Source of the DNA: an uncultured Gammaproteobacteria bacterium
Lineage (GTDB): Bacteria; Patescibacteriota; Patescibacteriia; UBA1558; 2-01-FULL-52-15
DNA length: 64,000 bases
Direction of reading: 5' to 3'
NCBI GenBank assembly: GCA_964402565.1
Contig: CAYOCJ010000001.1
Span: forward strand, 416,079-480,078
The notes under the pieces were generated by a model. It did not search any database, was not told the DNA's origin, and was given only the letters and a program-made list of their open reading frames with translations. Both the position numbers and the translations under genes were made by a program. Of the stretch, positions 1,356 to 62,981 are shown one piece after another; positions within the stretch are counted from its first letter, which is position 1, and each line of letters opens with the position of its first letter.

Positions 1356-1808
1356 CTAACTCCGCTTGGCTTGTTCTTTCTTCAGTCGTCGCCAGTCGTA
1401 GAAATCTATCTTCTTATTCTCTTCAACAAGAAAGACGTAGAGGTTTAGCTTATCTGCAACATTATAAGGCAACCGTCTTACTATCAAATCACGGAAGTTA
1501 GCTGGGAATCCGACACCGTATTTATAGCCGTATTTGTAGCCACGCTTTCCATCACTCTTCATCCGAGTGATTATTTGTCCAAGTGCCAGGTTGAAGTTTA
1601 CTTCACGATGCGAACGTGGATATTTCGCAGTTTTTGAAGCGTCACCCTTACACTCAATAAGCCAGTAGCGAGCGAACTTGTTGTTCCGCACTTTGATGTC
1701 CACGCCGTGCTCAGTCAGACCTTTACTTCGAAGGTTTCGGCTCCATCCTTTTCTGAATAGATACTCAATGATGTTGTCTTGAACAAACTTTTCTGTGAGT
1801 AATTTCAT
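1356..1808 (-). CDS. standalone PD-(D/E)xK nuclease-domain protein resembling the HsdR N-terminal (Mrr-cat-like) domain
   Basis: 150 aa. GVDIKV ... LIECKGD matches the D...ExK catalytic core. The N-terminal xxL(F)RKGW motif parallels LLQKSGW at the N-terminus of the adjacent HsdR. There is a 5-nt gap to the upstream hsdMS stop, so it is probably co-transcribed. Confidence 0.6.
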   Translation of the reverse strand: MKLLTEKFVQDNIIEYLFRKGWSRNLRSKGLTEHGVDIKVRNNKFARYWLIECKGDASKTAKYPRSHREVNFNLALGQIITRMKSDGKRGYKYGYKYGVGFPANFRDLIVRRLPYNVADKLNLYVFLVEENKKIDFYDWRRLKKEQAKRS

Positions 1809-1813
1809 GGTAA

Positions 1814-4231
1814 TTATTCACCCCAAATATCTACTATCTTCTTCTTTATCTTGTCTTCGTAAATATCAATCATTTTTCTTGCAGATAATGCGTGTGCTTG
1901 TTCATCTTTTACTTGGGCAACGATTCTTTTTTGAACCTCCAGGCTTGGTAGAGGGATAGAGAGGTGCTTTAGTGCGTTTCCATTGAATTGAGGTTGTACT
2001 CCGCCAGTCACTAATACTTTTGCCTGATTCCAATAATCACTCGTTTGAGCAAATGCCCAATAATACTCTGGAAGAATCTTGGTCGTGTCGAGAATAAGAC
2101 GAATAAGGAATGAAGCAAACACTGCGGGATATTCTTCGCTAAAAATCATTGTCTTACCGTATGTTGCTCCCGTGCGAGCAACCAAGACGTCACCTGCATG
2201 TAATTGATATGGTTGTGATGCTTTAGTGATATTCACATATTTTTCGCCGTCTGCCCTCAAGTGTCCGTCGTTGCTGATGTCAGTAATTCGGATGTATCGA
2301 GCATCTCCTTTAGATTTTGCTGTTTCAGTGTATCCATATTCCATTTTGGCAATCTCGCCCAACTTCTTCCTTTCCCATGACGCATCAAATCCTATAGATG
2401 GCTTGTGATGTTCAATAACTTGATTAGCTCCGTCAATAACTTTCTGATAACTATCGAACTCTGCAATAATTTGCCTCTGCACATCAATTGGAGGTACGGG
2501 AATCCTAATTTTCGCCAAATCTTTTGGGTAAACATGAGGTTGTCCACCGCCTTGTTGGAAACTGTACAGATATTCCTGTTTTGCTTTTAGTAGGTAATAA
2601 GCAAAACGAGTCAATAAAATTGCTTCGTTTTTTGACTGAATCGTTGTGCAATCAGAAGCAAAGATTGGCTCAGAGAAGTAATTTACGAATCCTGCATATG
2701 CACCAGACGCACTTACTGTTATCACATTTCCAGCTCGATTCGAGACATCGTGGTAATAAGCAGGTTGCTGTCCACCAGCAATCACAGGAACGTTACCGCT
2801 CGCGGTCTGCTTTTTTGTAATCGCACTACCTTTTCTAACTTCACACAAATCATTTATCGCTACGTCGTCCCACTGTCTATTCACAATTTTTAGTGGGAGG
2901 TACTTTTCTCCAGTGAGATTAGATTCGTCATTATCTGCAATTTTCTTTTTGCTTATCGTCCAAGCAAATAAGTTATCCTTTTTTATGGAGATTCTTTTTT
3001 TGTTCAATATCGATTCCTTGTGGGCTTTCAGTATCTCAAGTGCGTGTGGTAAGTCGTTTTTGTCTATAGGTTTTCTTTGTGCGCCCAAATCAAAACCATC
3101 GTTGAGAACTTTCAAGAAAAGTATCTCCTTCGATTGTTTTGATAACTGATTGTCGAAGAACAGTATGCTGGTTTTGACTCCCGCATATGGATTGAATACG
3201 CCGCCTGGCAAAGATACAACAGCGTAAAGTCCATCTGCGACAAGCAACTTGCGCAATTGTTTATATGCACCAGCAGACTGGAAAATAACTCCTTCAGGAA
3301 CGATAATGCCCGCACGTCCTTTGTTGTTGAGATGTTCCATTATGTAATCAACAAACAAAACTTCGGCGCGGTTCGCTTGCACCATAAAACGTTTGTGAGG
3401 TCGAATGCCACCTTTCGGACTCATAAACGGAGGATTTGCCATCATTACATCAAAACGTTCATTCCAGCGTTCGTCACTCGTGAGAGTATCGTATTCGTGA
3501 ATACTGGGACTTGGTGAGCCATGCAAGTACATGTTTACGAGAGAAAGTTTGACCATATCTGGTGAAATATCGTACCCAGTAAGATTACTCATCAAGCGTT
3601 TCTTTTCGTCTGGCGTGAGCCGTTTCTTCTCGTTTGCTTTCAGAATATGTTTGTAGGCAGAAATAAGAAACCCTGCCGTGCCGCAAGCTGGGTCAAGGAT
3701 AGTTTCATCTTTTTTGGGGTCTATTACTTCAACAATAAAATCGATAATGTGGCGCGGTGTGCGAAATTGCCCTGCTTCACCTTGAGACCCCAAAATTGAA
3801 AGTAAGTATTCAAAAGCATCGCCCAAGTTTTCGCTGTGGTCGTATGAAAATCCGTTTATCTCCTTCAAGAAAAGGTTGAGTGTTTGCGGGTCACGGTATG
3901 GTAAGTAGGCATCCTTGAAGACATCACGGAAGAGTTGCGGCAGATGGGGGTTGGTGGACATCTTTCTAATTGCTTCCTCATAAAGATTCAAGCGTTCTTG
4001 TCCGCCAAGTTTCGCATCCATCAATTTACTCCAACTGTATTTACCAAATCCATTCGTGAAGAATTGTGTCTTGCCTTTTGGTAGAGAAGCGGATTGCAAA
4101 TCCATATCATCCATAAACTTATAGATGAGTGCAGTTGTAATCTGTTCAACTTGCGCTTTTGGGTCAGGAACTTTACCCACGAGAATATCCCGCGCTGTAT
4201 CAATTTTTCGTTTTGTTTCTTGTGTCAACAT
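1814..4231 (-). CDS. hsdM: Type I-like restriction-modification methyltransferase fused to specificity subunit (HsdM::HsdS single polypeptide, 805 aa)
   Basis: HsdM N-domain, SAM motif DPACGTAGFL and N6-adenine motif IV NPPF. The C-terminal ~400 aa carries two target-recognition domains separated by HsdS-type conserved central and C-terminal repeats (GGQPHVYPKDLAKIRIPVPP ... GGVQPQFNGNALKHLSIPLP). It is a continuous ORF. Confidence 0.85.
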   Translation of the reverse strand: MLTQETKRKIDTARDILVGKVPDPKAQVEQITTALIYKFMDDMDLQSASLPKGKTQFFTNGFGKYSWSKLMDAKLGGQERLNLYEEAIRKMSTNPHLPQLFRDVFKDAYLPYRDPQTLNLFLKEINGFSYDHSENLGDAFEYLLSILGSQGEAGQFRTPRHIIDFIVEVIDPKKDETILDPACGTAGFLISAYKHILKANEKKRLTPDEKKRLMSNLTGYDISPDMVKLSLVNMYLHGSPSPSIHEYDTLTSDERWNERFDVMMANPPFMSPKGGIRPHKRFMVQANRAEVLFVDYIMEHLNNKGRAGIIVPEGVIFQSAGAYKQLRKLLVADGLYAVVSLPGGVFNPYAGVKTSILFFDNQLSKQSKEILFLKVLNDGFDLGAQRKPIDKNDLPHALEILKAHKESILNKKRISIKKDNLFAWTISKKKIADNDESNLTGEKYLPLKIVNRQWDDVAINDLCEVRKGSAITKKQTASGNVPVIAGGQQPAYYHDVSNRAGNVITVSASGAYAGFVNYFSEPIFASDCTTIQSKNEAILLTRFAYYLLKAKQEYLYSFQQGGGQPHVYPKDLAKIRIPVPPIDVQRQIIAEFDSYQKVIDGANQVIEHHKPSIGFDASWERKKLGEIAKMEYGYTETAKSKGDARYIRITDISNDGHLRADGEKYVNITKASQPYQLHAGDVLVARTGATYGKTMIFSEEYPAVFASFLIRLILDTTKILPEYYWAFAQTSDYWNQAKVLVTGGVQPQFNGNALKHLSIPLPSLEVQKRIVAQVKDEQAHALSARKMIDIYEDKIKKKIVDIWGE

Positions 4232-4233
4232 AA

Positions 4234-6750
4234 TTACATGTATGCGTTTAGAGAAACGTAGTCCTTCACGTATTCTGGTATGCGCTCAATCCAGCCATTT
4301 AGTTCCTGGAGGTCAGCAAATGTGAGTTTTGGATTGGTTGCAAGTCGGGTGTATTCTCCCTTTTCGATAATGTCTCTGATTTCGTTGTCAGTAATATACG
4401 CCTTCAAGTAGTTCTTGATTGGCATAACATATTTATTTTCGGGTTTATTGATGGCAACGAATTGCTCAAACTCATTTTCAAGCAAGTCGTCCTTTGATTT
4501 GAAGTTAGTGATGCCGCCGAATGCCTTTTCAATAAACTCGCGGATGCCGATACGACGGTCTGCTTTCACTGATTTACGCAACTTCTCCAGGCTGAAATAA
4601 TCTTCGGGCTTATTGAAGATATTGTCTTTCACGTAGTTCTCGATGGTTGCCAAGTCTCCCTCTTCGTATTTTTGCTTGATGAACGAATCTTCTTTGACTA
4701 CCGCTTCAAACCTTTCGAAAAGTTTTCGGTCTATTTTCATCCCTTCAACACCCACTGCTGTTTCAGAAAACGTCTTGAGAGGGTCAGGTTGAGTGATAAT
4801 GATTTCATCAATGTTCACACCTTCGCCACCCTCTTCACCTCCAGTACCTATCTTTGGTGGAAGTCGCAAAACTTCATCATAGTCATACTTCTCTTCAAAG
4901 TATTCACAGTTAGCAAAGAAATCAAAAAGCTTGAACTTATCTTTTGGCACAGAAGCGGTCTCAAGCTCTCCATCATCTTTTTGTTGATGATTGAAGGTGT
5001 ATTTACGCGTACCTCGTCCTTTTATTTGAATAAAATCAGTTGGCGAGAATATAGGGCGCATTAGGCACACGTTCAAAATATCCTCACAATCATATCCAGT
5101 AGTCATCATCCCCACAGTTACACAAACACGAGTTTTGCTTGAAAGATAACCTTCAAGAAACTTAGAGTGTCCGTTGAGGTTATTGTTTGCAAAACTGATA
5201 GTGAAGGATTGTGCATCTGAAATGTTTGAGCTGACTTGCACGGCAAAATCCGAGTTATATTTCCCAGGATAAAGTTGTTCGGCAAACTGGTTGAGTATCT
5301 GAGTAACTTTTGAAGCGTGTTTTTGGCTTACACAGAACACAATGGTTTTCCCAATTTCTCCAGTAATGGGGTCTTTGATTGCATTCTCAACAAAAGTTTT
5401 GCAGAAAATCTGATTAGTCTTATCAGAAAAAAACTTTCTCTCAAAATCTGTATGGAAGAAGGATTGCTCTTCTTCTTTTCCTTCCTCGTCTTCAACCATC
5501 ATCGCGTAACCCTTTTCTGAAAGAAGCTCTGTGGTTATTTCTGTGCGAGCATCAGCAACCACTGGATTTACCAGATAGCCATCTTTGACTCCATCAAGCA
5601 ACGTGTAGCGAAAAGTTGGCTCGCCAGTTTCGCAACCAAAAGTTTTATATGTATCAAAAAGCTGGCGACGTTCCCACGCACGAGGGTCTTTGGAGTTCAA
5701 TTTTTCTGGGTCTATACCTTTCAGATAGTTTTTTGGTGTTGCTGTAAGACCAAGCTTATAGCCCACAAAGTATTCGAACACCGCACGACTGTTGCCACCA
5801 ATAGAACGATGGGCTTCGTCGGAAATAAGAAGGTCAAAATCCGTTGGAGAAAAAAGTTTCTGATACTTATTATTGAAAGAAAGACTTTGAACAGTAGAGA
5901 CGACAATTTCCGCCTTGCGCCAGTCATCCTTATTCTCTTTATAGACGACAGCAGTGTAATCCTTCGAGAGCCATTTCTTGAAGTTCTTTGCTGCCTGGTC
6001 TTCCAGTTCAAGACGGTCAACGAGGAATAAGATGCGCTTGGCATTCCCTGACTTCAAGAACAATTTGATGACTGCTGCCGAAACCAGCGTTTTGCCCGTC
6101 CCTGTTGCCATTTCAAATAGGAAACGGTCATTGCCACCTCCTGCGGCTTCCTGAAGGGCTTTTATGGCACGTAGCTGGTATGGGCGAAGTAGTTTTAGTC
6201 CTTCCGCATCAATAAAACTTTGCTTTTGAGAGTCATCTGACCATCGAGGGTCGTTTTGATAATCCGCTTTCTGCGTAAGTGCAATGTAGTCACTTTCAAC
6301 TTGCTCTTCTGCTAATCGTTTTGAATCAGGTTTGAATGCTTCAAAATGCTGGAGTGAGTCTGGTGTTGGAAATTGAATAATAACAGTAGGATTGCCGCGC
6401 TCTAAATCCCAGAAGTAATGCAAATTGCCGTTTGAAAGAATAACAAAGCGTACATTGAGTGATTGCGCATAGCGCCGCGCCTGTTCTTTTCCATCAAGAG
6501 GGTCTTTGTCTTCAGACTTTGCCTCAAGCACCACATACGGAAAGCCCTTATCGTCGGAAAGAAGAAAATCTATAAATCCGTTCTTGGTTTTTTCGAAGTT
6601 ATTACCAAGTTCATCAATTCCTGGTTTAGTCAGTTTTACGTTTGGCTCAAGAGTGATGTTTGCCTTACCATTTTCGTCGTCGAAAAACCTCCAGCCTGAC
6701 TTCTGGAGAAGGTCATTTATTTTTATTCGTGCTTTAGCTTCTTTTTGCAT
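4234..6750 (-). CDS. hsdR: Type I restriction enzyme R subunit-like protein (N-terminal PD-(D/E)xK nuclease + SF2 helicase), short 838-aa form
   Basis: N-terminal nuclease motif IDFLL..VVLEAKS. Helicase motif I MATGTGKT, motif II LISDEAHR and motif VI QIKGRGTRK. The C-terminal helical region and the 3-nt gap to hsdMS suggest co-transcription. Confidence 0.85.
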   Translation of the reverse strand: MQKEAKARIKINDLLQKSGWRFFDDENGKANITLEPNVKLTKPGIDELGNNFEKTKNGFIDFLLSDDKGFPYVVLEAKSEDKDPLDGKEQARRYAQSLNVRFVILSNGNLHYFWDLERGNPTVIIQFPTPDSLQHFEAFKPDSKRLAEEQVESDYIALTQKADYQNDPRWSDDSQKQSFIDAEGLKLLRPYQLRAIKALQEAAGGGNDRFLFEMATGTGKTLVSAAVIKLFLKSGNAKRILFLVDRLELEDQAAKNFKKWLSKDYTAVVYKENKDDWRKAEIVVSTVQSLSFNNKYQKLFSPTDFDLLISDEAHRSIGGNSRAVFEYFVGYKLGLTATPKNYLKGIDPEKLNSKDPRAWERRQLFDTYKTFGCETGEPTFRYTLLDGVKDGYLVNPVVADARTEITTELLSEKGYAMMVEDEEGKEEEQSFFHTDFERKFFSDKTNQIFCKTFVENAIKDPITGEIGKTIVFCVSQKHASKVTQILNQFAEQLYPGKYNSDFAVQVSSNISDAQSFTISFANNNLNGHSKFLEGYLSSKTRVCVTVGMMTTGYDCEDILNVCLMRPIFSPTDFIQIKGRGTRKYTFNHQQKDDGELETASVPKDKFKLFDFFANCEYFEEKYDYDEVLRLPPKIGTGGEEGGEGVNIDEIIITQPDPLKTFSETAVGVEGMKIDRKLFERFEAVVKEDSFIKQKYEEGDLATIENYVKDNIFNKPEDYFSLEKLRKSVKADRRIGIREFIEKAFGGITNFKSKDDLLENEFEQFVAINKPENKYVMPIKNYLKAYITDNEIRDIIEKGEYTRLATNPKLTFADLQELNGWIERIPEYVKDYVSLNAYM

Positions 6751-6779
6751 TGTTCATTTTCATCTTCATTGTGGTGAGC

Positions 6780-6965
6780 CTACTTTCTCTTCTTCTTCCG
6801 AAAGCTGGACTCAATAAAGCCGTCGAGGTCTTCTTTACGAAAACGCCAACGACCTATCCACGCTGCTTTTATTTTTTCTTCGTGAAGATAACGGAACAAA
6901 GTCCGCTCTCCAACGTCGAGATATTTAGCAGCTTCCTGCAAAGTCAGAAACTCTTTTCTTTTCAT
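6780..6965 (-). CDS. small helix-turn-helix DNA-binding protein, excisionase/AlpA (HTH_17)-like; candidate controller or recombination directionality factor
   Basis: 61 aa. LTLQEAAKYLDVGERTLFRYLHEEKI is a typical Xis/AlpA-family HTH. It is the first gene of the minus-strand operon and ends 29 nt upstream of the hsdR start. Confidence 0.55.
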   Translation of the reverse strand: MKRKEFLTLQEAAKYLDVGERTLFRYLHEEKIKAAWIGRWRFRKEDLDGFIESSFRKKKRK

Positions 6966-7042
6966 ACTTTGTAATACTTATAGTGTAGCCGTTTTTTGAC
7001 ATCATGGCAAGAAATGGCAAGTTCTGATAAAATGATTTTACG

Positions 7043-7756
7043 ATGTATATGGGAATGACTTTAGAAGAAAAAGATGCTTTGCTCGCCAGTGTTATTGAAG
7101 AACACTATGCGACTCAAAAACATAATCCTACCTGTGTGCCTGTTGTCCATCTTCGAGACAAAGGTTTTGATGTTTCTGATACTCGCAATGGTTTGTGGCG
7201 TCTAAAAGAAAAAGGTGTGGTAAAAAGTTATCAACACGGCTGGGGTTTTCTTGAGCTTCAGAACAGTAAAAAGGTTTTTGTAAGGACAAGAACTGAAGAG
7301 CCTGATGACGGTAGCGACGATTTTGAGGCATACAGCGTTGAAATTGATACTAAAAAGCTTGAGCACACTGCATCCCAAAAACCAAACAGAGCGGCAAAAA
7401 AAGAAGTAGTTGATTTTGATACTCTAAATGCCGCTATTCACTTCGGAAAGAAGCATTACACATTCCAAAAAGGACGTGATAATCAAGTACGCTTGAAATT
7501 GTTTAGAGACCTCTGGGAGAGAAGAGAGGTCATCTATAATAATAAAGTAACGAGAAAAGGAGAACCCTTCCCTCCAGGTGCAATAGCCACACGAATTGGC
7601 TTGGTTGATAGTGCGCAAGGTTTTGAAAGAAACAAGGAAGCAAAGAGCAAGTTGGACACACTAATAAAAAACCTGGAGACAAACCTTCAAAGAGGAGGTA
7701 TTCCAATACGCATATACAAAAGAGGTGGAATCAAACTAATAGCAGGCGCGAAATAA
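7043..7756 (+). CDS. hypothetical protein (island cargo)
   Basis: 237-aa ORF with a good coding look and no recognisable motifs. It is followed by a terminator. Confidence 0.5.
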   Translation: MYMGMTLEEKDALLASVIEEHYATQKHNPTCVPVVHLRDKGFDVSDTRNGLWRLKEKGVVKSYQHGWGFLELQNSKKVFVRTRTEEPDDGSDDFEAYSVEIDTKKLEHTASQKPNRAAKKEVVDFDTLNAAIHFGKKHYTFQKGRDNQVRLKLFRDLWERREVIYNNKVTRKGEPFPPGAIATRIGLVDSAQGFERNKEAKSKLDTLIKNLETNLQRGGIPIRIYKRGGIKLIAGAK

Positions 7757-7768
7757 GCTTCAAATAGA

Positions 7769-7800
7769 GCACCCCCGAATAGACGGGAGTGTTTTGTTTT
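7769..7800 (+). terminator. intrinsic terminator after ORF 7043-7756
   Basis: gcaccccc-gaataga-cgggagtg stem with one mismatch, followed by ttttgtttt. A second hairpin gggtgca-ttattt-tgcaccc lies at 7814-7833. Confidence 0.5.
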
Positions 7801-7868
7801 GTGGAAAAAATAAGGGTGCATTATTTTGCACCCCTCTTCCAAATAAGACACTCAGTCAGAATGTGTGC

Positions 7869-8111
7869 ATGGAAGATAGAAATGTAGAAGTAAGCGATTT
7901 GGGTCTGGCGTCGCTCTTGGCGACACTCCAGTTTGAGTTGGTCGGTCTGGAGCGCGTGAATACGAAGCGCATAAACTTCGTCTTCAAATACGCTGACGGA
8001 ATCCAAAGAGTTATAGATGATTTTTGGGCTGATGCCAAAGTAACTGTGCAAGCACAGAGTCTTTTTCATACACAAAAAACACTCAAGAATCGTCTTTACG
8101 CCCTCAAGTAG
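7869..8111 (+). CDS. small hypothetical protein (island cargo; first of three tightly coupled small ORFs)
   Basis: The ORF track gives 7794-8111, but the 5' part overlaps the terminator hairpins. The internal Met at 7869 (MEDRNVEV...) is the preferred start. The stop abuts the next ATG. Confidence 0.4.
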   Translation: MEDRNVEVSDLGLASLLATLQFELVGLERVNTKRINFVFKYADGIQRVIDDFWADAKVTVQAQSLFHTQKTLKNRLYALK

Positions 8112-8270
8112 ATGGAACTCACAGATGTACAACTCAAGCTACTTCGAGAGCCGTTTGAGGAAGCAGGGGCACTCAAAGGACTTACCTATGAAGAAATAAA
8201 AAAACTTCTTGAAGAGATTGCAGAAGTGTACATCGTATTGGCTAACGAAAATCTGCTTGCAAAGAAATGA
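8112..8270 (+). CDS. 52-aa helical hypothetical protein (island cargo)
   Basis: The ATG follows the previous stop directly. The stop overlaps the next gene's ATG (ATGA), so it is translationally coupled on both sides. It is below the ORF-track size cutoff. Confidence 0.35.
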   Translation: MELTDVQLKLLREPFEEAGALKGLTYEEIKKLLEEIAEVYIVLANENLLAKK

Positions 8271-8866
8271 ATATGAAAAAGAAAACGAAAATCCCACTCT
8301 ATACAACTGAAGTAGAACCTGAAGACTATACACCGTTTTCAATGGTGTTCGCCTCCGTTTGGAAAGCCTACGATGCAGGTGAAATCAATCCTGAAAAGCT
8401 ACTGCTTTTTCTCAACCTCTATCGAGGTGTGAACCCCCACAACGGGTATGGATTTACGAGTTATGCCGAGCTGTGCCTACGTCTCAAACGAAGGTCAACA
8501 AAACTGGACGAGAATGCAATGAATAAGCTCATGGTGTCATTGCGAGATGATAACCACCTTGTGTGGTTTCCCCAGCATAGCGGAAGCAGAGAGTTTCCTT
8601 ACGTTTTAGCAAAGTTCAAGTTGGCTCAAATAAACAGCAAGGACAAGGAGAAATGGATAGACATCAAGCAGTATTTTCAGAGCAAAAATCAGAGCATCAG
8701 CAGAGCTTATGAACCTTCTTTACCCAGCACTCCACCAGAACCTCCACCGAGGCAACCTATGTCAGAGCAGAGGTTAGAAAGGTCGAATGGTGAATCAATT
8801 ACAAGCATAAAAGAGGATTTGGATAGACGTTATGGCAGACCTCCCCAGACGAATACCGAGTCATAG
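8267..8866 (+). CDS. hypothetical protein (island cargo; Pro-rich acidic C-terminal tail)
   Basis: 199-aa ORF coupled to the upstream small ORF. No recognisable catalytic motif. Confidence 0.5.
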   Translation: MNMKKKTKIPLYTTEVEPEDYTPFSMVFASVWKAYDAGEINPEKLLLFLNLYRGVNPHNGYGFTSYAELCLRLKRRSTKLDENAMNKLMVSLRDDNHLVWFPQHSGSREFPYVLAKFKLAQINSKDKEKWIDIKQYFQSKNQSISRAYEPSLPSTPPEPPPRQPMSEQRLERSNGESITSIKEDLDRRYGRPPQTNTES

Positions 8867-8894
8867 ACATAGACAGATTCGATTATAAAAAATT

Positions 8895-9209
8895 ATGAAA
8901 TCGACTAATCGTTTCCAAATAAGTGAAAGGCATCCGAGCGAATATCCAATAAACAACAACGAAGATGCTCACTGTGTTGATATAGCTCTCGCACTCGGAG
9001 AATCGGATATGAGGTATATCCTTGCACGTCGGCAGCAACTTGGGATGCAGGCAATCAGTGAAGCATACTCGGTTGTGAAGGATGAGATTCGCAAAGGAAA
9101 ATGCCAGTCTCCTGGAAGGCTCTTCAACTACTTGCTTACTCAAAAACTCGAAGAAAAGAAAAAGTCTAAATCTCTGGGGTCAAGAGAACCGCCAATAGAC
9201 GATGGTTGA
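8895..9209 (+). CDS. hypothetical protein (island cargo)
   Basis: 104-aa ORF, no motifs recognised. Confidence 0.4.
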   Translation: MKSTNRFQISERHPSEYPINNNEDAHCVDIALALGESDMRYILARRQQLGMQAISEAYSVVKDEIRKGKCQSPGRLFNYLLTQKLEEKKKSKSLGSREPPIDDG

Positions 9210-9331
9210 CCCCATGTAAGTTATGTTCTTTGCACCTTGATAACTGGACTTGCCACAACCTGCCATAGTGCTATACTTATATTGCTACCTACAAGTTTGA
9301 ATATGTGCACGGGGTCTCTGCTTTTTTAGCT

Positions 9332-9395
9332 CCAATTGTGGGCGAAAAGGGGCAGTCGAGACCTCCGCAATTGGTTGCCTCGTGCAATTCAATCT
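9332..9395. promoter_or_regulatory. repeated CAATTG-type motifs / imperfect inverted repeat in the 260-bp intergenic region upstream of the recombinase gene pair
   Basis: ccaattgtgg (9332-9341) and ccgcaattgg (9365-9374) form a 10-bp imperfect inverted repeat. A third tgcaattcaat copy follows. This is a candidate operator or recombination site. Confidence 0.3.
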
Positions 9396-9469
9396 TGTGG
9401 GTAGCAGGCTCCTCGGCTGTCCCTTTTCGTGTTTATAAATAACCAGGGACGGGTCGGAGCGAATAAGTT

Positions 9470-9945
9470 ATGGCAACGCTACCACCCACATGCACGTCTC
9501 ACGGATACAAAGATAGCTCTGGAAAAACCCAGGTCGTGTTTAGTTCGGATTGCTACTATCCAGGAAGTAACTGCATCCTCACAAACGACCAGTGTGTCTC
9601 TACATTCAAAGAAACTGGTTGCAAGGGTGGAGATGGACAGTATGCGTGTGCGCAAGCCTATTACCTCAAGCAACAAAGCCAGGTAAAGCCACAAGCTCAA
9701 CCTGTGATAATTACAAATACTGGTCAAGAAAATGCGGAGTTGAAAACACAACTTCAAGAAATGCAGAAACAAATCGAGACGTTACAGTCAAAACAAGCTA
9801 CGGCTACCACAACGGTGCCGCCAGCCCAAACTACACCCCTATTTGAAAACCCAGTCGTTCCATATTCGATTTTGGGAATACTCATAGTAGGAATCGTGGT
9901 GTTGATGAAGATGAAAATCATTACAATCTCATCTAACAAACAACC

Positions 9946-9949
<4 letters not shown>
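9470..9949 (+). CDS. Cys-rich, coiled-coil, C-terminally membrane-anchored hypothetical protein, translationally coupled to the serine recombinase
   Basis: 159 aa with 8 Cys in the first 60 residues, a Q/T-rich coiled coil and a C-terminal TM helix (ILGILIVGIVVLM). The stop overlaps the recombinase ATG (ATGA). Confidence 0.5.
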
Positions 9950-11567
<1,618 letters not shown>

Positions 11568-11654: not shown

Positions 11655-13262
11655 ATGCAAATTTCAGAAAGCATTAAGGATTTGTATTTGCGATTGATTG
11701 CTATACAGCGGGCATTATATGTGCCTGAGGACGTGACCATAAACAAGATCAACGTCGACGATATCGTCTCGAAACTCGCTGTTCTCTACGAACGGATGCG
11801 GAATACGATGGATTATCAGGAAGACCACTTGCTGCGCCGTTTTGCTATCGAGCGGAATATCAAGCGGCGCTTGGTCCTGGAAAGCTTGTCGCCCAAGATC
11901 GCTCAATCGCTGATCGAAGAATTGATACGCAGCGGCTACATGGCTAATAATAGCGTGCCCGAGACCATCGTCATGCCCGTGAGCAATGTGATCAATAAGT
12001 ATGTCTATCTCATTGAACTGGTGCAGGATGATATCACCGATATTTCCGAGCGCAGGAAGATCGTGAATTGGATCGCCGAGGTCATGGCATGCGAGATCGA
12101 TCTGTTGCTGGTGCCTGAGATCCGCGTTGATGCTTTGATCGAAAGCCTGTACTCGATCGTTCGCGACAGGATCAAGATGCGCGGTGCGAATTTAAGCGAG
12201 CGCGAAAAGAATATCCAGCTCTACATTACCCTTCACAAAGAACTGGTGAAGTCGGACAACCCCATCATCTCCTATCATTTGCTGAATTTGTATTTCCCTG
12301 ACTGGCAGCATGCAGATAAAGAGCTGACTGAATTTGTCGCAAGCAAGATCGCAAGCGTGTATTATGGCATTCAGAATCATCTGGATAATCCGATCCGGAC
12401 AAAAATAGCGAAAAGCCTTAAAAAACAGATCGTTGTTTTTAAAGTTCTGCGCGAGCTTATAGCGATGCATGAAAATGATCTGGTAAATTTATTCGGAAAC
12501 CCTGAATTACTGGAGTCTGAAGCGCGGAAAGTTATCGAGCGGAATTACAAGATGACCAGGCGCAAATTGAGAAACAGCTCTTTGCGCGCTATCTTATATA
12601 TTTTCATTACCAAGGTTGCCTTGGCATTCTTGCTGGAGTATCCATATGACAAGTATGTGATCGGCCATGTGAACCAAGTAGCGTTATCGATCAATGTCAT
12701 TGTACCTCCGTTACTCATGTTCTTCATCACCTTGTCGGCTCGGCTGCCAGGGGTAACGAATACGCGTTTGATCATGGCCGAGCTAAAAAATGTCGTCTAC
12801 GGTGATCCGGGCGATGAGATCCTCTGTGAATTGAATGTGAAGCGCAAGCAGGGCCCTGTCTATTTTTTCATCGAGTACCTGTTCTACATGCTGCTCTATG
12901 GCTTGATATTCGGCATCATCATTTACTGGCTGAGCCTCCTGAAATTCAATCTCTTATCCGGCGGCATTTTTATCTTCTTCGTGACTGCAGTGAGCTTCTT
13001 CGGAACTCGCATACGCCAGCTTACCAAGGAATACTCGGTTGAGAATAAGCGCGAGGGTCTGATCGGGCTTATTACCATCTTTTTCTCGCTGCCGATCATT
13101 CGTGCCGGCCATTGGCTGTCCGTGAATATGCGGCGCATTAACTTATTCGTTTTCGTCATGGATTTTATCATAGAGGCGCCATTCAAGCTTGTGGTCGAGA
13201 TCATCGAAAGCTGGTTCGTTTTCCTGCGTGAAAAAAAGGAAGATACCTACAAGACAAGCTAG
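11655..13262 (+). CDS. hypothetical polytopic membrane protein (soluble N-terminal ~300 aa + C-terminal multi-TM region)
   Basis: 535-aa ORF, no motif recognised. A TATAGT -10 lies just upstream. Confidence 0.6.
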   Translation: MQISESIKDLYLRLIAIQRALYVPEDVTINKINVDDIVSKLAVLYERMRNTMDYQEDHLLRRFAIERNIKRRLVLESLSPKIAQSLIEELIRSGYMANNSVPETIVMPVSNVINKYVYLIELVQDDITDISERRKIVNWIAEVMACEIDLLLVPEIRVDALIESLYSIVRDRIKMRGANLSEREKNIQLYITLHKELVKSDNPIISYHLLNLYFPDWQHADKELTEFVASKIASVYYGIQNHLDNPIRTKIAKSLKKQIVVFKVLRELIAMHENDLVNLFGNPELLESEARKVIERNYKMTRRKLRNSSLRAILYIFITKVALAFLLEYPYDKYVIGHVNQVALSINVIVPPLLMFFITLSARLPGVTNTRLIMAELKNVVYGDPGDEILCELNVKRKQGPVYFFIEYLFYMLLYGLIFGIIIYWLSLLKFNLLSGGIFIFFVTAVSFFGTRIRQLTKEYSVENKREGLIGLITIFFSLPIIRAGHWLSVNMRRINLFVFVMDFIIEAPFKLVVEIIESWFVFLREKKEDTYKTS

Positions 13263-16287: not shown

Positions 16288-16719
16288 ATGCTTGGTATGT
16301 TTCTGGTACCCGTTTTCTCTGCGATGGCGCAGGCAACAACAACACAGGATACATTGGATGCTGCGAAAGAGATCCTGGCAGCTCAGCAGCGAGTCACAGA
16401 GGCGCGGCAGGCTTTGGAAGCCGCAACTGCTCTCGCAACTGTTGACCAGAGCACAAAGCCGGAGAATATTTTCTCACTTTCAAACCCGAGTCTTTGGATA
16501 CTGGTAGCCATTTTGCTTGGCGTCCTGTTATTATTGCTTGCGATTCGCAGATCTATCCTCGAATCGTCCACCTATTTGGTAACAAGTCCGGTTCGTACTG
16601 TGCATCCTTCGCAAACTCAAAAAGTGAGCGATGCGGGTGCGCCGGATAAGGCACTTGTATATCCTGTAAAAGTTGTTAAAATAAAGGTACGTAAATTAAC
16701 GAAAACACATAGGGCCTAG
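16288..16719 (+). CDS. hypothetical secreted/membrane protein (signal peptide + central TM)
   Basis: Start placed at MLGMFLVPVFSAMA (signal-like). The ORF-track start 16231 overlaps the upstream gene. Confidence 0.5.
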   Translation: MLGMFLVPVFSAMAQATTTQDTLDAAKEILAAQQRVTEARQALEAATALATVDQSTKPENIFSLSNPSLWILVAILLGVLLLLLAIRRSILESSTYLVTSPVRTVHPSQTQKVSDAGAPDKALVYPVKVVKIKVRKLTKTHRA

Positions 16720-16720
16720 C

Positions 16721-17998
16721 ATGAAGCGTTTACCTTCACATTCTATCACTGATAACAGCGGCTTTACGTTGCTGGAGTTATTGATAGTTGTTGCGATTAT
16801 TGGCTTTCTATCGAGTGTTTCAATCGTTGCTCTAGGCACTTCACGGATCAAAAGCAGAGATACGCAGCGTAAATTTGATCAGCTCACGGTTTTGAAGGCC
16901 GCTGAGCTGTATACGAATGATTTTGGCGCACCGCCGACTCAGCTGTGCGTGGATAATAATCTAAATGATTCCAATCCTTGCAGTGCGAGCGGCGCTTTTT
17001 TGAACAGCTCACATGAAGATCTCATCCAGGGCAGTTCGCATGATGGGCTTTTTTCTACACCAAAGGCCTATGCGCAGATTTGTGCCCATCCGCCATGTGG
17101 CGGAAGGCCGGGCGAAGTTTTGGAGGTGTGCCAATGCGGATCAGACTCGATAACATCCGCGTGTCAGGGAGTTTGTTCAGGCGGAGGACCTCCGCCGCCA
17201 CCGCCACCATCAGGACCGTATTGCGGGGACGATATATGCAATAATTTCGAAACCTACGGAACTTGTCCGAGTGATTGTACTAGTTGTAATAATAATAATG
17301 TTTGCGATGCAGGCGAGTCTCCGGCTTGCGGTGATTGTACGTGCAATGGTAATGGCATTTGCGAAGTGGCGAGAAATGAACGTTTATCGAATTGCAGCGA
17401 CTGCTCTCTGGGTAGTAGCGCAAATCCGCCCGCAACGTGCGGGAATGGAGTTTGTAATGCCGGCGAGACATATTATAACTGTAATGTGGGAGGCGTACAT
17501 GACTGCCTGGCGATCATGTGCAAGGACGCCAATGGAGTAGTTGATTCTTGCTGTGCAACGGGTACGAATTGTCCTGCTGGATATGTCGCGGGCGAAGGAT
17601 ACTATGGAGTATGCAATTACGACCGCTGTGAGCAAAAATATTTATTGCAGCCCCCGGCCTTTATCTGTTCTGCGAACGCTGACTGTGCTCCGGGAGCGTC
17701 GGCTGGCGTTACTACTCCGCAGCAAAAATTCGTCTCAAATCAATCGACCAACTGGCTGAAAGGACTTGAGCCATATATGGTATCGCGTCCGGTCGATCCG
17801 GGAGGACATGCTGATCCCAGATATAATGTGTACTATTGCAGCTCGCACCCAGATGTAGTCAAGGGCCATGCATTCTGCTGCTGGGTATCGCTAGAGCGCG
17901 AACAGGACAATTTCAATCCCTACAATGATATTGTAGATGCTCCGACGGGGAGCACCAGTGGAGAACTCGCGAAGTGGACTCCATTGTGCAAGCAATAA
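16721..17998 (+). CDS. type IV pilin-like protein with large Cys-rich-repeat C-terminal domain (candidate minor pilin/adhesin)
   Basis: Prepilin N-terminus G-FTLLELLIVVAIIG. A PPPPPPP linker is followed by at least four CxDxxCxxxE...CxxDC repeats resembling the Myxococcus-type cysteine-rich repeat. 40+ Cys overall. Confidence 0.8.
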   Translation: MKRLPSHSITDNSGFTLLELLIVVAIIGFLSSVSIVALGTSRIKSRDTQRKFDQLTVLKAAELYTNDFGAPPTQLCVDNNLNDSNPCSASGAFLNSSHEDLIQGSSHDGLFSTPKAYAQICAHPPCGGRPGEVLEVCQCGSDSITSACQGVCSGGGPPPPPPPSGPYCGDDICNNFETYGTCPSDCTSCNNNNVCDAGESPACGDCTCNGNGICEVARNERLSNCSDCSLGSSANPPATCGNGVCNAGETYYNCNVGGVHDCLAIMCKDANGVVDSCCATGTNCPAGYVAGEGYYGVCNYDRCEQKYLLQPPAFICSANADCAPGASAGVTTPQQKFVSNQSTNWLKGLEPYMVSRPVDPGGHADPRYNVYYCSSHPDVVKGHAFCCWVSLEREQDNFNPYNDIVDAPTGSTSGELAKWTPLCKQ

Positions 17999-59140: not shown

Positions 59141-60658
59141 ATGAACGCCTGGTTCGAACAAATTACCGTTTTTTTTGTTGAGCTTTCTACCAAGAATCCA
59201 CTGTCTATCATGTGGATTTTATTTCTTAAAGGAGGCTGGGTCATTGTCATGATCGGCTTGCTTCGGCTGTGGTGGCTGATGCGTTTATATTCGCTGCAAA
59301 CCAAGTACAGCAAAACCATCACGTATACCATGCTTGCCATAGATATTCCGAAGGCCAGCGAACAAACGCCGAAAGCCATGGAACAGGTGTTCGCTACTAT
59401 ATCTGGGGCGCATGCAGACTTCAACAAAAAAGAAATTTATCTGAAGGGAATGTACCAATTGTCATTTTCTTTCGAGATCATCAGTATTGACGGGTATATT
59501 CAGTTTTTGATTCGAACGCCATCGGTATTCCGAGATCTGATCGAAGGCGCGATCTATGCCCATTATCCCGACGCTGAGATCACGGAAGTGTATGATTATA
59601 CGACCGATATACCGACTAATTTCCCCAATGATAGATTCAACCTCTGGGGCGCTGAGATCGAAACTGCAGCAAATGAGGCGCTGCCGCTACGTACGTACGA
59701 GTCTTTCGAGGATAAATTGTCGCAAGAACTGAAAGACCCGCTGGCCGGCGTGCTCGAAACCATGAGCCGCATTCAAAAAGGAGAGCAAGTCTGGCTTCAG
59801 ATCATCGTGAAGCCGACGGACACCGCATGGGCGAAAAAATGCATCGCATATGCTCATAAGCTAGCCGGCAAGAAAACTGAGACCAAAAGCAGCAAATCCT
59901 GGTACTCGCCAATTTTGGGTTTTCTCTATGGCATGTTCGATGATTGGATATCATGGATGCCTGGCTCAAAAGTCGAATCGAAAAATGATAACGGGCTGGA
60001 TTTTAAAGTATTGAACCTCACACCGGGTGAACGCGCTACCATTGAAGCGGTGGAGCGGAAAGCTTCAAAGATAGGCTTCGTTTGCAAAATTCGACTCATG
60101 TATCTTTCTCCTCACGAGCAATTTTCCGCGAAGCGCGTTGTCTCCGCAGTATTCGGCGGTATGAAGCAATTCGGAGACCTCAGCTCAAATGCGTTGAAGC
60201 CCAATAAGCGGACAAAGACACAGGCAGTGTATTTCAGGCCAGAACAGCGCGCAGATGCACGGAGACGGAGGATCATGGGCAATTACAAAGCGCGCTCGTG
60301 GTTTAACGGATCAAAATACTTCATTTTGAATACTGAAGAACTTGCAACACTCTATCATTTCCCGTCGATCACGGTGACTACACCGTACTTGAAACGCACC
60401 GAGGCAAAAAAGAGCGACGCGCCTTCTCAATTGCCTTCCAGTGCTGAAGAGGTCATGGTGCAAGAAGAGAGCAACCTTAAGCAGCAGCTTGAAGGCTTAT
60501 CGCTCGATAATAGCTACTACGAAAAATTATACGCGAAAGGACCTGTTGAAAAACCCAAGCAAAAAGCGACGCTCAGTACTCCCGAAAAACAGCAGCCAGG
60601 TACACCAGCAATCGAGTCGAGTGACGGTGTCCCGCATAATTTACCGATACTGCAATGA
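59141..60658 (+). CDS. membrane-anchored hypothetical protein (2 N-terminal TM + ~430-aa soluble domain), coupled to T4CP-like ATPase
   Basis: 505-aa ORF with no motif recognised. Stop/start ATGA overlap with the downstream ATPase gene. Confidence 0.6.
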   Translation: MNAWFEQITVFFVELSTKNPLSIMWILFLKGGWVIVMIGLLRLWWLMRLYSLQTKYSKTITYTMLAIDIPKASEQTPKAMEQVFATISGAHADFNKKEIYLKGMYQLSFSFEIISIDGYIQFLIRTPSVFRDLIEGAIYAHYPDAEITEVYDYTTDIPTNFPNDRFNLWGAEIETAANEALPLRTYESFEDKLSQELKDPLAGVLETMSRIQKGEQVWLQIIVKPTDTAWAKKCIAYAHKLAGKKTETKSSKSWYSPILGFLYGMFDDWISWMPGSKVESKNDNGLDFKVLNLTPGERATIEAVERKASKIGFVCKIRLMYLSPHEQFSAKRVVSAVFGGMKQFGDLSSNALKPNKRTKTQAVYFRPEQRADARRRRIMGNYKARSWFNGSKYFILNTEELATLYHFPSITVTTPYLKRTEAKKSDAPSQLPSSAEEVMVQEESNLKQQLEGLSLDNSYYEKLYAKGPVEKPKQKATLSTPEKQQPGTPAIESSDGVPHNLPILQ

Positions 60659-62382
60659 CAAACGATTCCATAACAGTATTTGCCTCTACTAATTTCCGCA
60701 ATCGCCAGCAGCGATTCGGCATTAAGGCTGATGATCGTCGCCGGCATATGTATTTGATCGGTAAAACCGGCATGGGCAAGTCTGAAATGCTGAAGAATAT
60801 GGCAATTCAGGATATTCGCAATGGTCATGGCGTTGCTGTGGTCGATCCTCACGGCGACATGGTAGAAACGGTCCTGCGTTTCGTGCCGCGCGAACGGATC
60901 AATGATGTGGTGTATTTCAATCCGTCCGACCTTGATTTCCCGATCGCATTCAATGTACTTGAAAAAGTATCACTAGAGCAGCGCCATTTAGTTGCGTCAG
61001 GCCTGATAGGCGTTTTCAAAAAGATCTGGGCCGACTCCTGGGGGCCTCGTCTCGAATACGTCCTGCACAATGCAATCTCTGCGTTGCTGGAGTATCCCGG
61101 CTCGACCTTACTGAGTATTATGCGAATGCTCACGGATAAGGCTTTCCGCAAGCGCGTCGTTGAAAAGATCAATGACCCCGTCGTAAAAGCATTCTGGGTG
61201 GAGGAGTATTCGAAATATCCTGACCGGTTCCAGGCTGAAGCGATCGCACCGATCCAAAACAAAGTCGGACGATTCCTCACATCTGCTCTCATGAGAAATA
61301 TTGTAGGACAGGTCGCTTCATCGATCAACGTCCGTGAGATGATGGATAATCAGAAGATCTTTCTTATTAATTTGTCAAAAGGACGCGTCGGAGAAGATAA
61401 TTCGGCCTTGCTCGGTGCTCTGCTGATCACAAAAATGCAGCTTGCTGCAATGAGCCGTGTCGATATACCCGAAAAAGATCGTAAAGATTTTTATTTGTAT
61501 GTTGACGAGTTTCAAAATTTTGCCACCGAAAGTTTTGCCGGTATTCTGTCTGAAGCCAGAAAGTATCGCCTGAATCTAATTTTGGCACACCAATATATTG
61601 CGCAGCTCGTGCATGATGGCAATAGTACGGTTCGCGATGCGGTATTCGGCAACGTAGGCACCTTGGTTACATTCAGAGTCGGTGCTGCTGACGCTGAATT
61701 TATGGAACCGGAGTTTATGCCGGCTTTGACACAGGAGGACCTGGTCAACTTACCGAAGTATCAGATCTATTTGAAACTTATGATCGATGGCGTTACCTCG
61801 AATGCTTTTTCAGCATCGACTTTGCCACCGTATGAGCCGCCGGCTGATGCGGCTGAAATCGTTGATAAGGTTATTAAAGTTTCTCGCGAACGATACGCAA
61901 AACCTCGCGAGGTGATTGAGGACAAAATCATTCGCTGGGCCGAAAATACCGGCGATGACCAGCCGAAGGCCAGCCACGATACCCAATCAACACAAGCTGC
62001 CGCGCCGAGGGTTTATGAAGCAGGCGGGTCCCGTGACCGATCAACTTCAGATATAAAGGCTCCGAAAGGTGATGCGAAACTATTCGATGCTACCTGTTCT
62101 AACTGCGGCAAGAAAACAACCACGAAATTTAAACCCGATCCCAAGCGGCCCGTATACTGCCCTGAATGCCTGCAAAAGGTTAAAGCTGGCCTGCTGCAAC
62201 CTGCTCCAGTACAAGCTGCTGCACCGATTCCAAAGGAAGTCTCTTTGATGGAGGCTATTTCATCTCATCAACAAAAGAGACCTGTAAAGACAGATGATTT
62301 GGTAGGCTCGCTCGACGATAAGCCCGCAAATCGCCTGCTCCAGCCGAACCAAGTTATACACCTAAGCGATAGTAAAAACTGA
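60655..62382 (+). CDS. FtsK/HerA-superfamily P-loop ATPase most similar to type IV coupling proteins (TraD/VirD4-like), no TM segments, C-terminal zinc ribbon
   Basis: Walker A GKTGMGKSE followed by VAVVDPHGD, Walker B FYLYVDEFQNF, and RKYRLNLILAHQYIAQL, a T4CP-like arginine finger/Q motif. C-terminal CSNCG...CPEC zinc ribbon. Confidence 0.7.
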   Translation: MTNDSITVFASTNFRNRQQRFGIKADDRRRHMYLIGKTGMGKSEMLKNMAIQDIRNGHGVAVVDPHGDMVETVLRFVPRERINDVVYFNPSDLDFPIAFNVLEKVSLEQRHLVASGLIGVFKKIWADSWGPRLEYVLHNAISALLEYPGSTLLSIMRMLTDKAFRKRVVEKINDPVVKAFWVEEYSKYPDRFQAEAIAPIQNKVGRFLTSALMRNIVGQVASSINVREMMDNQKIFLINLSKGRVGEDNSALLGALLITKMQLAAMSRVDIPEKDRKDFYLYVDEFQNFATESFAGILSEARKYRLNLILAHQYIAQLVHDGNSTVRDAVFGNVGTLVTFRVGAADAEFMEPEFMPALTQEDLVNLPKYQIYLKLMIDGVTSNAFSASTLPPYEPPADAAEIVDKVIKVSRERYAKPREVIEDKIIRWAENTGDDQPKASHDTQSTQAAAPRVYEAGGSRDRSTSDIKAPKGDAKLFDATCSNCGKKTTTKFKPDPKRPVYCPECLQKVKAGLLQPAPVQAAAPIPKEVSLMEAISSHQQKRPVKTDDLVGSLDDKPANRLLQPNQVIHLSDSKN

Positions 62383-62465: not shown

Positions 62466-62981
62466 ATGAAATTACAAAGCAAAAAGGGATTTACGCTTAT
62501 CGAACTTATCATCGTTGTAGCCATCATTGGTTTATTGGCAGCAGCTTTATTCGTAGCTATTGACCCTGCAAAGCGCGTGGGTGACGCCCGTGACGCGCGT
62601 CGCTATGCTGACGTAACTTCTGTTTTGAACGCTATTTTACAATATACGGTTGACGCTAACGGATTGCCAACGCCAGTTGCTAATATGACTCCCGGCAACT
62701 ACTATGTCATAGCACAAGGCCAAGGACAGCTCACCAGCGGTGCAACCAGCGACAATGCTGATTGTGTGGAACTTCTCGGCACCAGCGGAGCTCAATCGAA
62801 CTACGGACAAATCAATCTTTGGACTGCTCTGACCGATAAGTATATAGCGACCATGCCTGTTGATCCATCGCAGACCGCAAGCAGTACTGGCTATTACATC
62901 AAGAAGAGCTCGAGTAATAGAATTTTGGTCGGATCTTGTCTGAAGTCGAATTCTACGAACTCGATTGAAGTGCAGAGATAA
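62466..62981 (+). CDS. type IV pilin (major-pilin-like, 171 aa)
   Basis: Prepilin leader plus G-FTLIELIIVVAIIGLLAA N-methylation domain, with a C-terminal Cys pair (CVELLG...GSC). Confidence 0.85.
   Translation: MKLQSKKGFTLIELIIVVAIIGLLAAALFVAIDPAKRVGDARDARRYADVTSVLNAILQYTVDANGLPTPVANMTPGNYYVIAQGQGQLTSGATSDNADCVELLGTSGAQSNYGQINLWTALTDKYIATMPVDPSQTASSTGYYIKKSSSNRILVGSCLKSNSTNSIEVQR

Follow-up and report, generated by a model that had tools for sequence, protein, structure and literature searches.

A cysteine-rich type IV pilin from a Patescibacteria lineage with a putative exchangeable cassette between helix α1 and the pilin head

The stretch of DNA analysed here (64 kb of the 633-kb contig CAYOCJ010000001.1; hereafter the window) contains a gene for a cysteine-rich protein that appears to be a modular type IV pilin. 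We consider it probable that this protein enters a pilus through its N-terminal helix α1 and displays a disulfide-rich binding cassette that has been exchanged between lineages. Five features of the sequence point this way: a prepilin motif, an apparently split pilin architecture, paired cysteines, a variable cassette and a conserved gene pair. An earlier note, made from the DNA letters and open reading frames (ORFs), had described a pilin-like protein of 425 residues with a Myxococcus-type cysteine-rich repeat domain, preceded by a small secreted or membrane protein. The length is borne out by the ORF, as is the presence of a small membrane protein directly upstream, while the repeat assignment requires revision.

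Architecture of the pilin

The pilin N-terminus reads MKRLPSHSITDNSG/FTLLELLIVVAIIGFLSSV, where the slash marks the predicted cleavage site (G14/FTLLE). The type IV prepilin N-terminus claimed in the earlier note is recognised by both PF07963 (27.2 bits against a cut-off of 21.2) and TIGR02532 (26.8 bits against a cut-off of 16.3). A short polar leader ends in glycine and is followed in the prepilin order by phenylalanine at +1, glutamate at +5 and about 20 hydrophobic residues. G14, F15 and E19 (G-1, F+1 and E+5) are invariant across nine orthologues, and the N-terminus also fits a PilFind-type regular expression. In sequence and profile searches of the PDB, α1 matches the α1 of solved pilins and pseudopilins and is the only part of the protein to do so. 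It is predicted to be helical in both AlphaFold2 (AF2) runs, one on the window pilin and one on the short orthologue P0021. An NCBIfam scan of the pilin gave no match at cut-off to GspG, GspH, GspJ, ComGC-GE, PilA_Myxo or PpdD; the named pilin and pseudopilin equivalogue models align with residues ~11-74 only, at 11-26 bits against cut-offs of 49-400. A scan for promoters and terminators returned counts equal to shuffle expectation.

Homology to pilins extends to the other end of the protein, so that the term pilin-like can be strengthened. The C-terminal ~100 residues appear to be a pilin head rather than an appended domain. With α1 removed from both sides, hhalign against 97 canonical pilin heads gave a probability of 91%, an E-value of 1.1e-6 and a score of 36.8, against scores of at most 13.3 for the controls (a reversed alignment and 30 column shuffles). 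The profile homology spans residues ~320-389 of the head. The head follows the pattern NWLxGLxxYxxxxPxDPG…YxxYYxSS…FCVWVSLE…WTxLC, which includes a conserved Cys386…Cys423 pair, and a parallel consensus, W…Y…LP.DP…Y.Y…Y.L…LE, is found in 97 ordinary pilins of ~170 residues from the same search. In the AF2 model of P0021 (predicted local distance difference test, pLDDT, 69; predicted template modelling score, pTM, 0.60), α1 spans residues 16-67 and C-terminal strands are predicted with confidence at 205-207, 218-223 and 251-256, with block-mean pLDDT values of 71-86 over residues ~170-257. A Foldseek search of this model against the PDB gave no match (best E 2.2), and the pilin fold of the head is supported by profile homology rather than by a structural match.

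Because α1 and the C-terminal head are both of pilin type, and because short orthologues do without most of the region between them, residues ~73-325 (~250 residues) appear to have been inserted at the αβ-loop position, which links α1 to the head. In the short relatives P0021, P0023, P0024, P0159 and P0160 (242-259 residues) the same α1 and C-terminal region are present, with only a glycine linker and a six-cysteine mini-knot between them. In the window pilin, the insert is made up of a variable cassette, two conserved short four-cysteine repeats and a conserved eight-cysteine knot.

The earlier note had read at least four repeats of the form CxDxxCxxxE-N5-8-CxxDC in this region, preceded by a poly-proline linker. 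The linker is present as a run of seven prolines. Four short cysteine repeats (R1-R4) are likewise present, although a regular expression for the literal motif matches R1 only. A hidden Markov model (HMM) trained solely on repeats from other proteins, which avoids circularity, recovered all four (i-E 2e-6, 2e-5, 3e-3 and 2e-7 for R1 to R4), and scored 17.5 on the whole pilin against a maximum of 8.3 over 500 composition-matched shuffles. The consensus of the short repeat is C-G-N-G-x-C-[DE]-x-G-E-[TN]-x3-C-x2-D-C. The window repeats are 18-23 residues long, with the spacing C-x4-5-C-x7-10-C-x2-7-C, and C208, C214, E220, C225, D227, C228, C240, C245, E249, C254, D261 and C262 are invariant in the orthologues. 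R1-R4 have no similarity to one another at the DNA level; no recent duplication was thus detected, and the repeats must be old.

TIGR02232 and PF13948/DUF4215 (curated cut-offs of 20.8 and 27 bits, respectively) gave no match even at E<=10, either with the whole pilin or with the isolated 105-residue repeat region, and an HMM of the long repeats of the orthologues scores -13.3. Membership of the window pilin in TIGR02232/DUF4215 was therefore rejected. The Myxococcus-type label fails for this protein but stands at the level of the family, since genuine TIGR02232 repeats (34-114 bits) are found in the corresponding variable slot of the orthologues P0006, P0008, P0019 and P0025. Comparison of the short repeats with the long, TIGR02232-type repeats by hhalign gave 34% (E 4e-4). 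The earlier note had named two findings that would speak against it, repeats matching no cysteine-rich family and an N-terminus lacking a cleavable leader. The first is what we observe, while the prepilin leader is present.

The short four-cysteine repeat has no Pfam or NCBIfam model. Nothing in Pfam matches the eight-cysteine knot or the conserved cysteine region in the 15 members scanned, and a profile running from R3 through the knot found a sole, non-significant match in the PDB, the RET cysteine-rich domain (E 2.8). Tandem arrays of the short repeat also occur in P0013/P0014, unrelated non-pilin proteins from metagenomes (JGI, Logan) that have a signal anchor, where a regular expression catches five repeat copies. 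On this basis the short repeat appears to be a mobile surface-protein module. No further cysteine-repeat protein was found in the window.

The pilin contains 36 cysteines, fewer than the more than 40 counted in the earlier note, and all of them lie past residue 75, in the exported part. The number of cysteines is even in all 15 members counted (8, 10, 22, 28, 30, 30, 30, 30, 34, 34, 36, 36, 40, 44 and 46). Extra pairs are lineage-specific: YYC…FCC is found only in P0001, P0004 and P0017, on two strands that AF2 predicts to be neighbours, and P0019 has a different extra pair in the same two head segments. C386 and C423 are invariant in the orthologues and recall the disulfide loop at the C-terminus of type IVa pilins. 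The exported part has an acidic isoelectric point (pI 4.0-4.5), and the 135-residue cassette has only two lysine and arginine residues. Pairs of MdbA-like oxidoreductases and VKOR are enriched in the Candidate Phyla Radiation (CPR) and have been proposed to fold pilins (bioRxiv 10.1101/335083).

The orthologue family and the upstream partner gene

A word-indexed search of 5.8 billion proteins returned 11 full-length relatives with 33-52% identity. When 1.84 billion cluster representatives were searched exhaustively with phmmer, 11,755 matches were obtained, nearly all of them to α1 only; ~20 extend into the C-terminal part, and 14 reach E<=1e-30. A scan of the GTDB representative genomes with N-terminal patterns, whose matches were mostly generic pilins, found a single full-length relative. 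One orthologue is labelled 'Patescibacteria group bacterium' at NCBI, and one short-form pilin, from the same syntenic slot, comes from a groundwater metagenome. The pilin is a single-copy orthologue in each relative checked and lies directly upstream of recJ-rnhA-holB in every relative examined. As this position is the same in all of them, the family is a vertically inherited, single-locus orthologue group of one clade.

Conservation is distributed unevenly along the protein. Mean identity to the orthologues is 75% in α1 (15-72), 21% in the variable cassette (73-207), 46% in R3-R4 (208-262), where all cysteines are invariant, 50% in the 'CC' knot (267-322) and 55% in the C-terminal region (326-425). 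The variable cassette is 87-187 residues long in the orthologues and is occupied by extra short repeats, by TIGR02232 repeats, by an FN3 domain (P0007) or by a PT-HINT domain (P0012 and P0158).

The PT-HINT (intein-like) domain of P0158/P0012 (NCBI MEK7584331.1) spans residues ~126-263 of the variable slot. It starts with SFTGDT and ends with LLVHN, followed by lysine, and there is no +1 nucleophile. For this reason it looks like a bacterial-intein-like domain that would undergo self-cleavage rather than splicing. Such cleavage would part α1 from the head.

The gene upstream of the pilin encodes a membrane protein, here termed the partner. The earlier note had placed its start at 16288, which has no Shine-Dalgarno sequence before it. 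A strong one, AAAGGAGGGG, lies 9-11 nt before 16231; public gene calls also give 162 residues, and orthologues carry a longer, positively charged n-region, so that 16231 is most likely the true start. The partner is laid out as a cleavable Sec signal peptide (…VFSAMA/QA), an ectodomain of ~55 residues and a transmembrane (TM) helix at residues ~88-106, with a conserved SNPxLW before the helix and an RR motif after it. The cytoplasmic tail of ~55 residues is basic (pI 10.3) and ends in PVKxVKIKVRK, with an invariant K-x-V-x-I-K-V-R-K. Different genomes encode this motif with different synonymous codons (ata/att, aag/aaa, gta/gtg/gtt/gtc and cgt/agg/aga/cga), which indicates constraint on the KIKVRK peptide. 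An RNA or ribosome-binding-site element as the explanation of the conserved KIKVRK was rejected on the same grounds.

The stop codon of the partner lies 1 nt before the ATG of the pilin. The partner gene is found 5' of the pilin in every relative checked, with stop and start 1 nt apart or with the ORFs overlapping by a few nt. The partner family is as clade-restricted as the pilin family (8-14 clusters) and has no relative in Pfam, NCBIfam or the PDB, where the search gave generic TM-helix matches only. The size of its ectodomain varies, from ~55 residues here to 300 in L009, the locus of a genome with a short-form pilin. There, a 418-residue partner with TSP3-type calcium-binding repeats is encoded at 4723-5979 and the acyl-CoA synthetase gene is absent; the 300-residue ectodomain is of CARDB/TSP3 type, while the SNPMFW-TM motif and the end …KPVKIKVRKINIKK are kept. 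In the locus L008 (1961-3808; P0007), partner and pilin form a single in-frame ORF of 615 residues with no stop between them. A good Shine-Dalgarno sequence, GGGAGGGG, precedes the internal pilin ATG, and FN3 occupies the variable slot. The fusion makes topological sense, since both the partner tail and the leader of the pilin lie in the cytoplasm.

Proposed role and genomic setting

From these features we infer cleavage of the leader, incorporation into a filament, the status of a minor subunit, binding of a ligand and possibly some role for the partner. The prepilin would be inserted into the membrane by α1, and the 14-residue leader would be removed after Gly14 by a prepilin peptidase encoded elsewhere. 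The ectodomain would be oxidised to ~18 disulfides by an MdbA/VKOR-type system. The mature protein, with its conserved Glu+5, would then enter a type IV pilus through α1 at low abundance; the bulk of this pilus would consist of ordinary pilins of ~170 residues such as that encoded at 62466-62981. The cassette, presumably rigid as well as acidic and cysteine-rich, would project outward and bind a ligand on the surface of a host, partner cell or substrate. The presence of TIGR02232 repeats, FN3 or HINT in the same slot of the orthologues suggests that the cassette may be an evolutionary swap site at which lineages retune their ligand specificity. The bitopic partner, whose translation is coupled to that of the pilin, is likely to cooperate with it at the membrane, whether in assembly, in retention or in co-display. 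A tip adhesin or a minor pilin is a plausible assignment, and neither the invariant Glu+5 nor insertion in the loop requires a position at the tip.

Several observations weigh against this proposal. No pilB, pilC, pilD, pilM or pilT gene is present within the window, and the pilin gene has housekeeping genes as neighbours. The AF2 model of the window pilin itself, built from a nine-sequence alignment, has a pLDDT of 36.9 and is unusable. Finally, no ligand can be named, and no annotated relative of the short repeat or of the knot was found.

Conservation of Glu+5 and of a complete head is expected for packing in a filament and would be unneeded in a mere anchor. It is accordingly unlikely that the protein is a non-filament surface binding protein whose class III signal peptide and α1 serve only as an anchor, in the manner of the archaeal 'bindosome' proteins, and which works in a complex with the bitopic partner, both displaying variable ectodomains on the cell. 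Such a role would fit a pilin gene that is an orphan far from any pilus cluster, its strict coupling to a membrane partner whose ectodomain is likewise variable, and the topology of the in-frame L008 fusion. Orphan minor-pilin genes are common, however.

Rather more doubtfully, pilin and partner could constitute a hitherto undescribed two-gene surface module in which the partner, with its swappable ectodomain, controls which pilin enters the filament. The cytoplasmic tail PVKxVKIKVRK might in that case work in cis with the leader of the pilin, for example by docking the prepilin to the assembly platform or the peptidase, or by acting as an extended pro-region removable by PilD, as in the 615-residue fusion. 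If true, the two-gene module would be a new control of filament entry coupled to exchange of the αβ-loop cassette.

It is improbable that the protein is the major subunit of a dedicated, disulfide-armoured thick filament with a cassette in each αβ-loop. An insert in the αβ-loop would probably fit sterically along a filament, unlike C-terminal grafts, and the conserved Glu+5 and the single-copy orthologue in every relative checked agree with such a role. Characterised major pilins are, however, small and highly expressed (PMC11623550, PMC8179133), and a canonical 171-residue pilin is encoded within the same window. A cassette that varies from 87 to 187 residues and is nearly gone in the short orthologues would also be hard to fit into a conserved lattice. 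A component of a competence (DNA-uptake) pilus is highly improbable. The position upstream of recJ, rnhA and holB might suggest one, given that recJ synteny is kept in all relatives and that a pilin beside recA was taken as a hint of DNA uptake in the TM7x study (PMC11623550). The acidic ectodomain (pI 4.0-4.5, with two lysine and arginine residues in the 135-residue cassette) nevertheless speaks against binding of DNA, the adjacency of recJ is little informative within a block (RRF, RseP, MreB and others) whose synteny is of the housekeeping kind throughout, and the NCBIfam ComG equivalogue models match α1 only, far under their cut-offs.

The neighbours of the pilin gene encode an ADP-forming acyl-CoA synthetase, PfkB, RecJ, RNase H, HolB, RRF, RseP, MreBCD, PBP2, MurJ, FtsW, MraY, SecA and SecDF. 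The start of recJ is most likely at 18003, 5 nt past the pilin stop. The canonical 171-residue type IV pilin (62466-62981) adjoins a VirD4-like ATPase. The segment 59141-62981 as a whole encodes a 505-residue membrane protein without a Pfam match, a VirD4/TrwB-like coupling ATPase (60655-62382) with a C-terminal treble-clef zinc finger, and this pilin. It may be part of a Patescibacteria conjugation-like type IV secretion system (PMC12102498).

Two further observations concern the region upstream. The block 1356-11567 has a lower GC content (0.41-0.44, against ~0.48 elsewhere) and contains the restriction-modification, recombinase and tRNA genes listed in Table 1, alongside several small unknown ORFs. 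It is probably an integrated mobile element. A 535-residue protein without a Pfam match is encoded at 11655-13262, and a conserved counterpart of 534-535 residues holds this syntenic position in those relatives whose loci reach that far upstream.

Table 1. Features of the window, with positions numbered from its first nucleotide
Feature	Position	Strand	Basis or remark
Partner gene, 162 aa	16231..16719	+	ORF, Shine-Dalgarno, hydropathy, alignments
Cysteine-rich modular type IV pilin gene (proposed)	16721..17998	+	ORF, 425 aa plus stop
Class III (prepilin) leader, aa 1-14, last residue Gly14	16721..16762	+	PF07963, TIGR02532 above cut-offs
Mature N-terminus and helix α1, aa 15-72 (FTLLELLIVVAIIGFLSS…AAELYTNDFGAPP)	16763..16936	+	Orthologue identity, solved pilins, AF2
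Variable cassette, aa 73-207, 16 Cys	16937..17341	+	21% orthologue identity, variable length
G3-P7 linker, aa 154-163 (Pro7 run aa 157-163)	17189-17209	+	In variable cassette
Repeat R1, aa 168-186	17222-17278	+	In variable cassette, HMM match
Repeat R2, aa 189-206	17285-17338	+	In variable cassette, HMM match
Conserved repeats R3 and R4	17342..17506	+	Invariant residues, HMM matches
Repeat R3, aa 208-228	17342-17404	+	HMM match
Repeat R4, aa 240-262	17438-17506	+	HMM match
Conserved 8-Cys 'CC' knot, aa 267-322 (C…CC…C…GYYGVC…C…C…DC)	17519..17686	+	Invariant Cys in alignments
Pilin head (putative β-sheet region), aa 326-425	17696..17995	+	hhalign to canonical heads; kept in short orthologues
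Fused HsdM+S, type I restriction-modification	1814-4231	-	In lower-GC block
HsdR, type I restriction-modification	4234-6750	-	In lower-GC block
DUF5659 protein	7794-8111		In lower-GC block, alongside several small unknown ORFs
Large serine recombinase	9946-11526		Abuts tRNA-Gln
tRNA-Gln	11494-11567	-	Abuts serine recombinase

Comparison with known systems

The earlier note thought a protein of this kind unusual for an organism with an otherwise minimal gene set. The literature does not bear this out: CPR/Patescibacteria are enriched in divergent pilins, MdbA/VKOR and cysteine-rich exported proteins (bioRxiv 10.1101/335083; PMC4736985), and modular pilins have been catalogued in them. Large modular cysteine-rich surface proteins and divergent pilins are thus already expected in the CPR. 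In the literature searched, we found no description of an extra module inserted between α1 and head, of a cassette of short four-cysteine repeats with an eight-cysteine knot, or of a co-inherited partner with a KIKVRK tail. Patescibacteria rely on other cells, and few mediators of their attachment to them have experimental support, type IV pili being one (PMC11623550). If the window protein is a modular pilin as proposed, its swappable, disulfide-armoured exposed loop would be a concrete candidate for a specificity determinant in one uncultivated lineage. The partner, which is strictly co-inherited, has an invariant tail and in one genome is fused to the pilin, offers a testable way into the handling of accessory pilins. 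For practical purposes the findings mainly serve annotation; neither Pfam nor NCBIfam has a model for the short repeat, the knot or the partner family.

Peribacteria, also of the CPR, encode large cysteine-rich exported proteins that weakly resemble the Myxococcus repeat and for which a role in rigidity or attachment has been proposed (PMC4736985). The window protein is similarly exported and very rich in cysteine. The Peribacteria proteins, however, average ~1,655 residues, have Sec signal peptides and are not pilins, whereas the window protein appears to be one. Its repeats share with TIGR02232/PF13948, the 'Myxococcus cysteine-rich acidic repeat', an acidic and cysteine-rich composition and a CGNG…E start. 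They are shorter, the TIGR02232 model having 38 positions and its copies in the orthologues a C-to-C core of 27-29 residues (C-x10-11-C-x10-12-C-x3-C), and they depart from the TIGR02232 spacing CGNG…E-C-DDGN…DGC-x3-C in that the second cysteine of the window repeats lies 4-5 residues after the first.

The minor pilins PilX1 and PilX2 of the Saccharibacteria episymbiont TM7x have large accessory domains, and deletion of PilX2 lowers host binding (PMC11623550). Like them, the window protein is a Patescibacteria pilin with a large accessory domain and a candidate adhesin. PilX1 and PilX2 differ in that their accessory domain is a C-terminal β-jelly-roll or β-propeller and their genes lie in pilus loci, whereas the window gene is an orphan and its product cysteine-rich. 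No sequence similarity between the window pilin and PilX1 or PilX2 was found beyond α1. Pseudopilins of the GspK type are not known to have Glu+5, which the window pilin keeps. Their insert is an α-domain within the β-sheet, in the type II secretion systems of diderms, and no GspK model matches the window pilin. They nevertheless provide a precedent for a domain inserted within a pilin module (PMC8179133).

More than 1,200 modular pilins in 264 architectures have been catalogued, including proteins of Candidatus Magasanikbacteria and Falkowbacteria (PMC8179133). An architecture combining a pilin with TIGR02232/DUF4215 was not found in the supplementary text of that study, which may be incomplete in the form available. 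The window protein has the N-terminal pilin signature and the extra module, one without specificity for pilus biology, by which Raynaud et al. (2021) define a modular pilin, and this extra module has no database signature. Modular pilins, among them PilB and PilC of S. sanguinis, act as adhesins whose extra module is displayed by the filament (Raynaud et al. 2021, PMC8179133). As in PilB and PilC, the pilin module of the window protein bears an extra, non-pilus module, which takes it far above the ~15 kDa of major pilins. PilB and PilC carry this module behind a complete small pilin, whereas in the window pilin ~250 residues appear to lie between α1 and the head. This suggests that insertion into the pilin fold, and not C-terminal grafting alone, can give rise to modular pilins.

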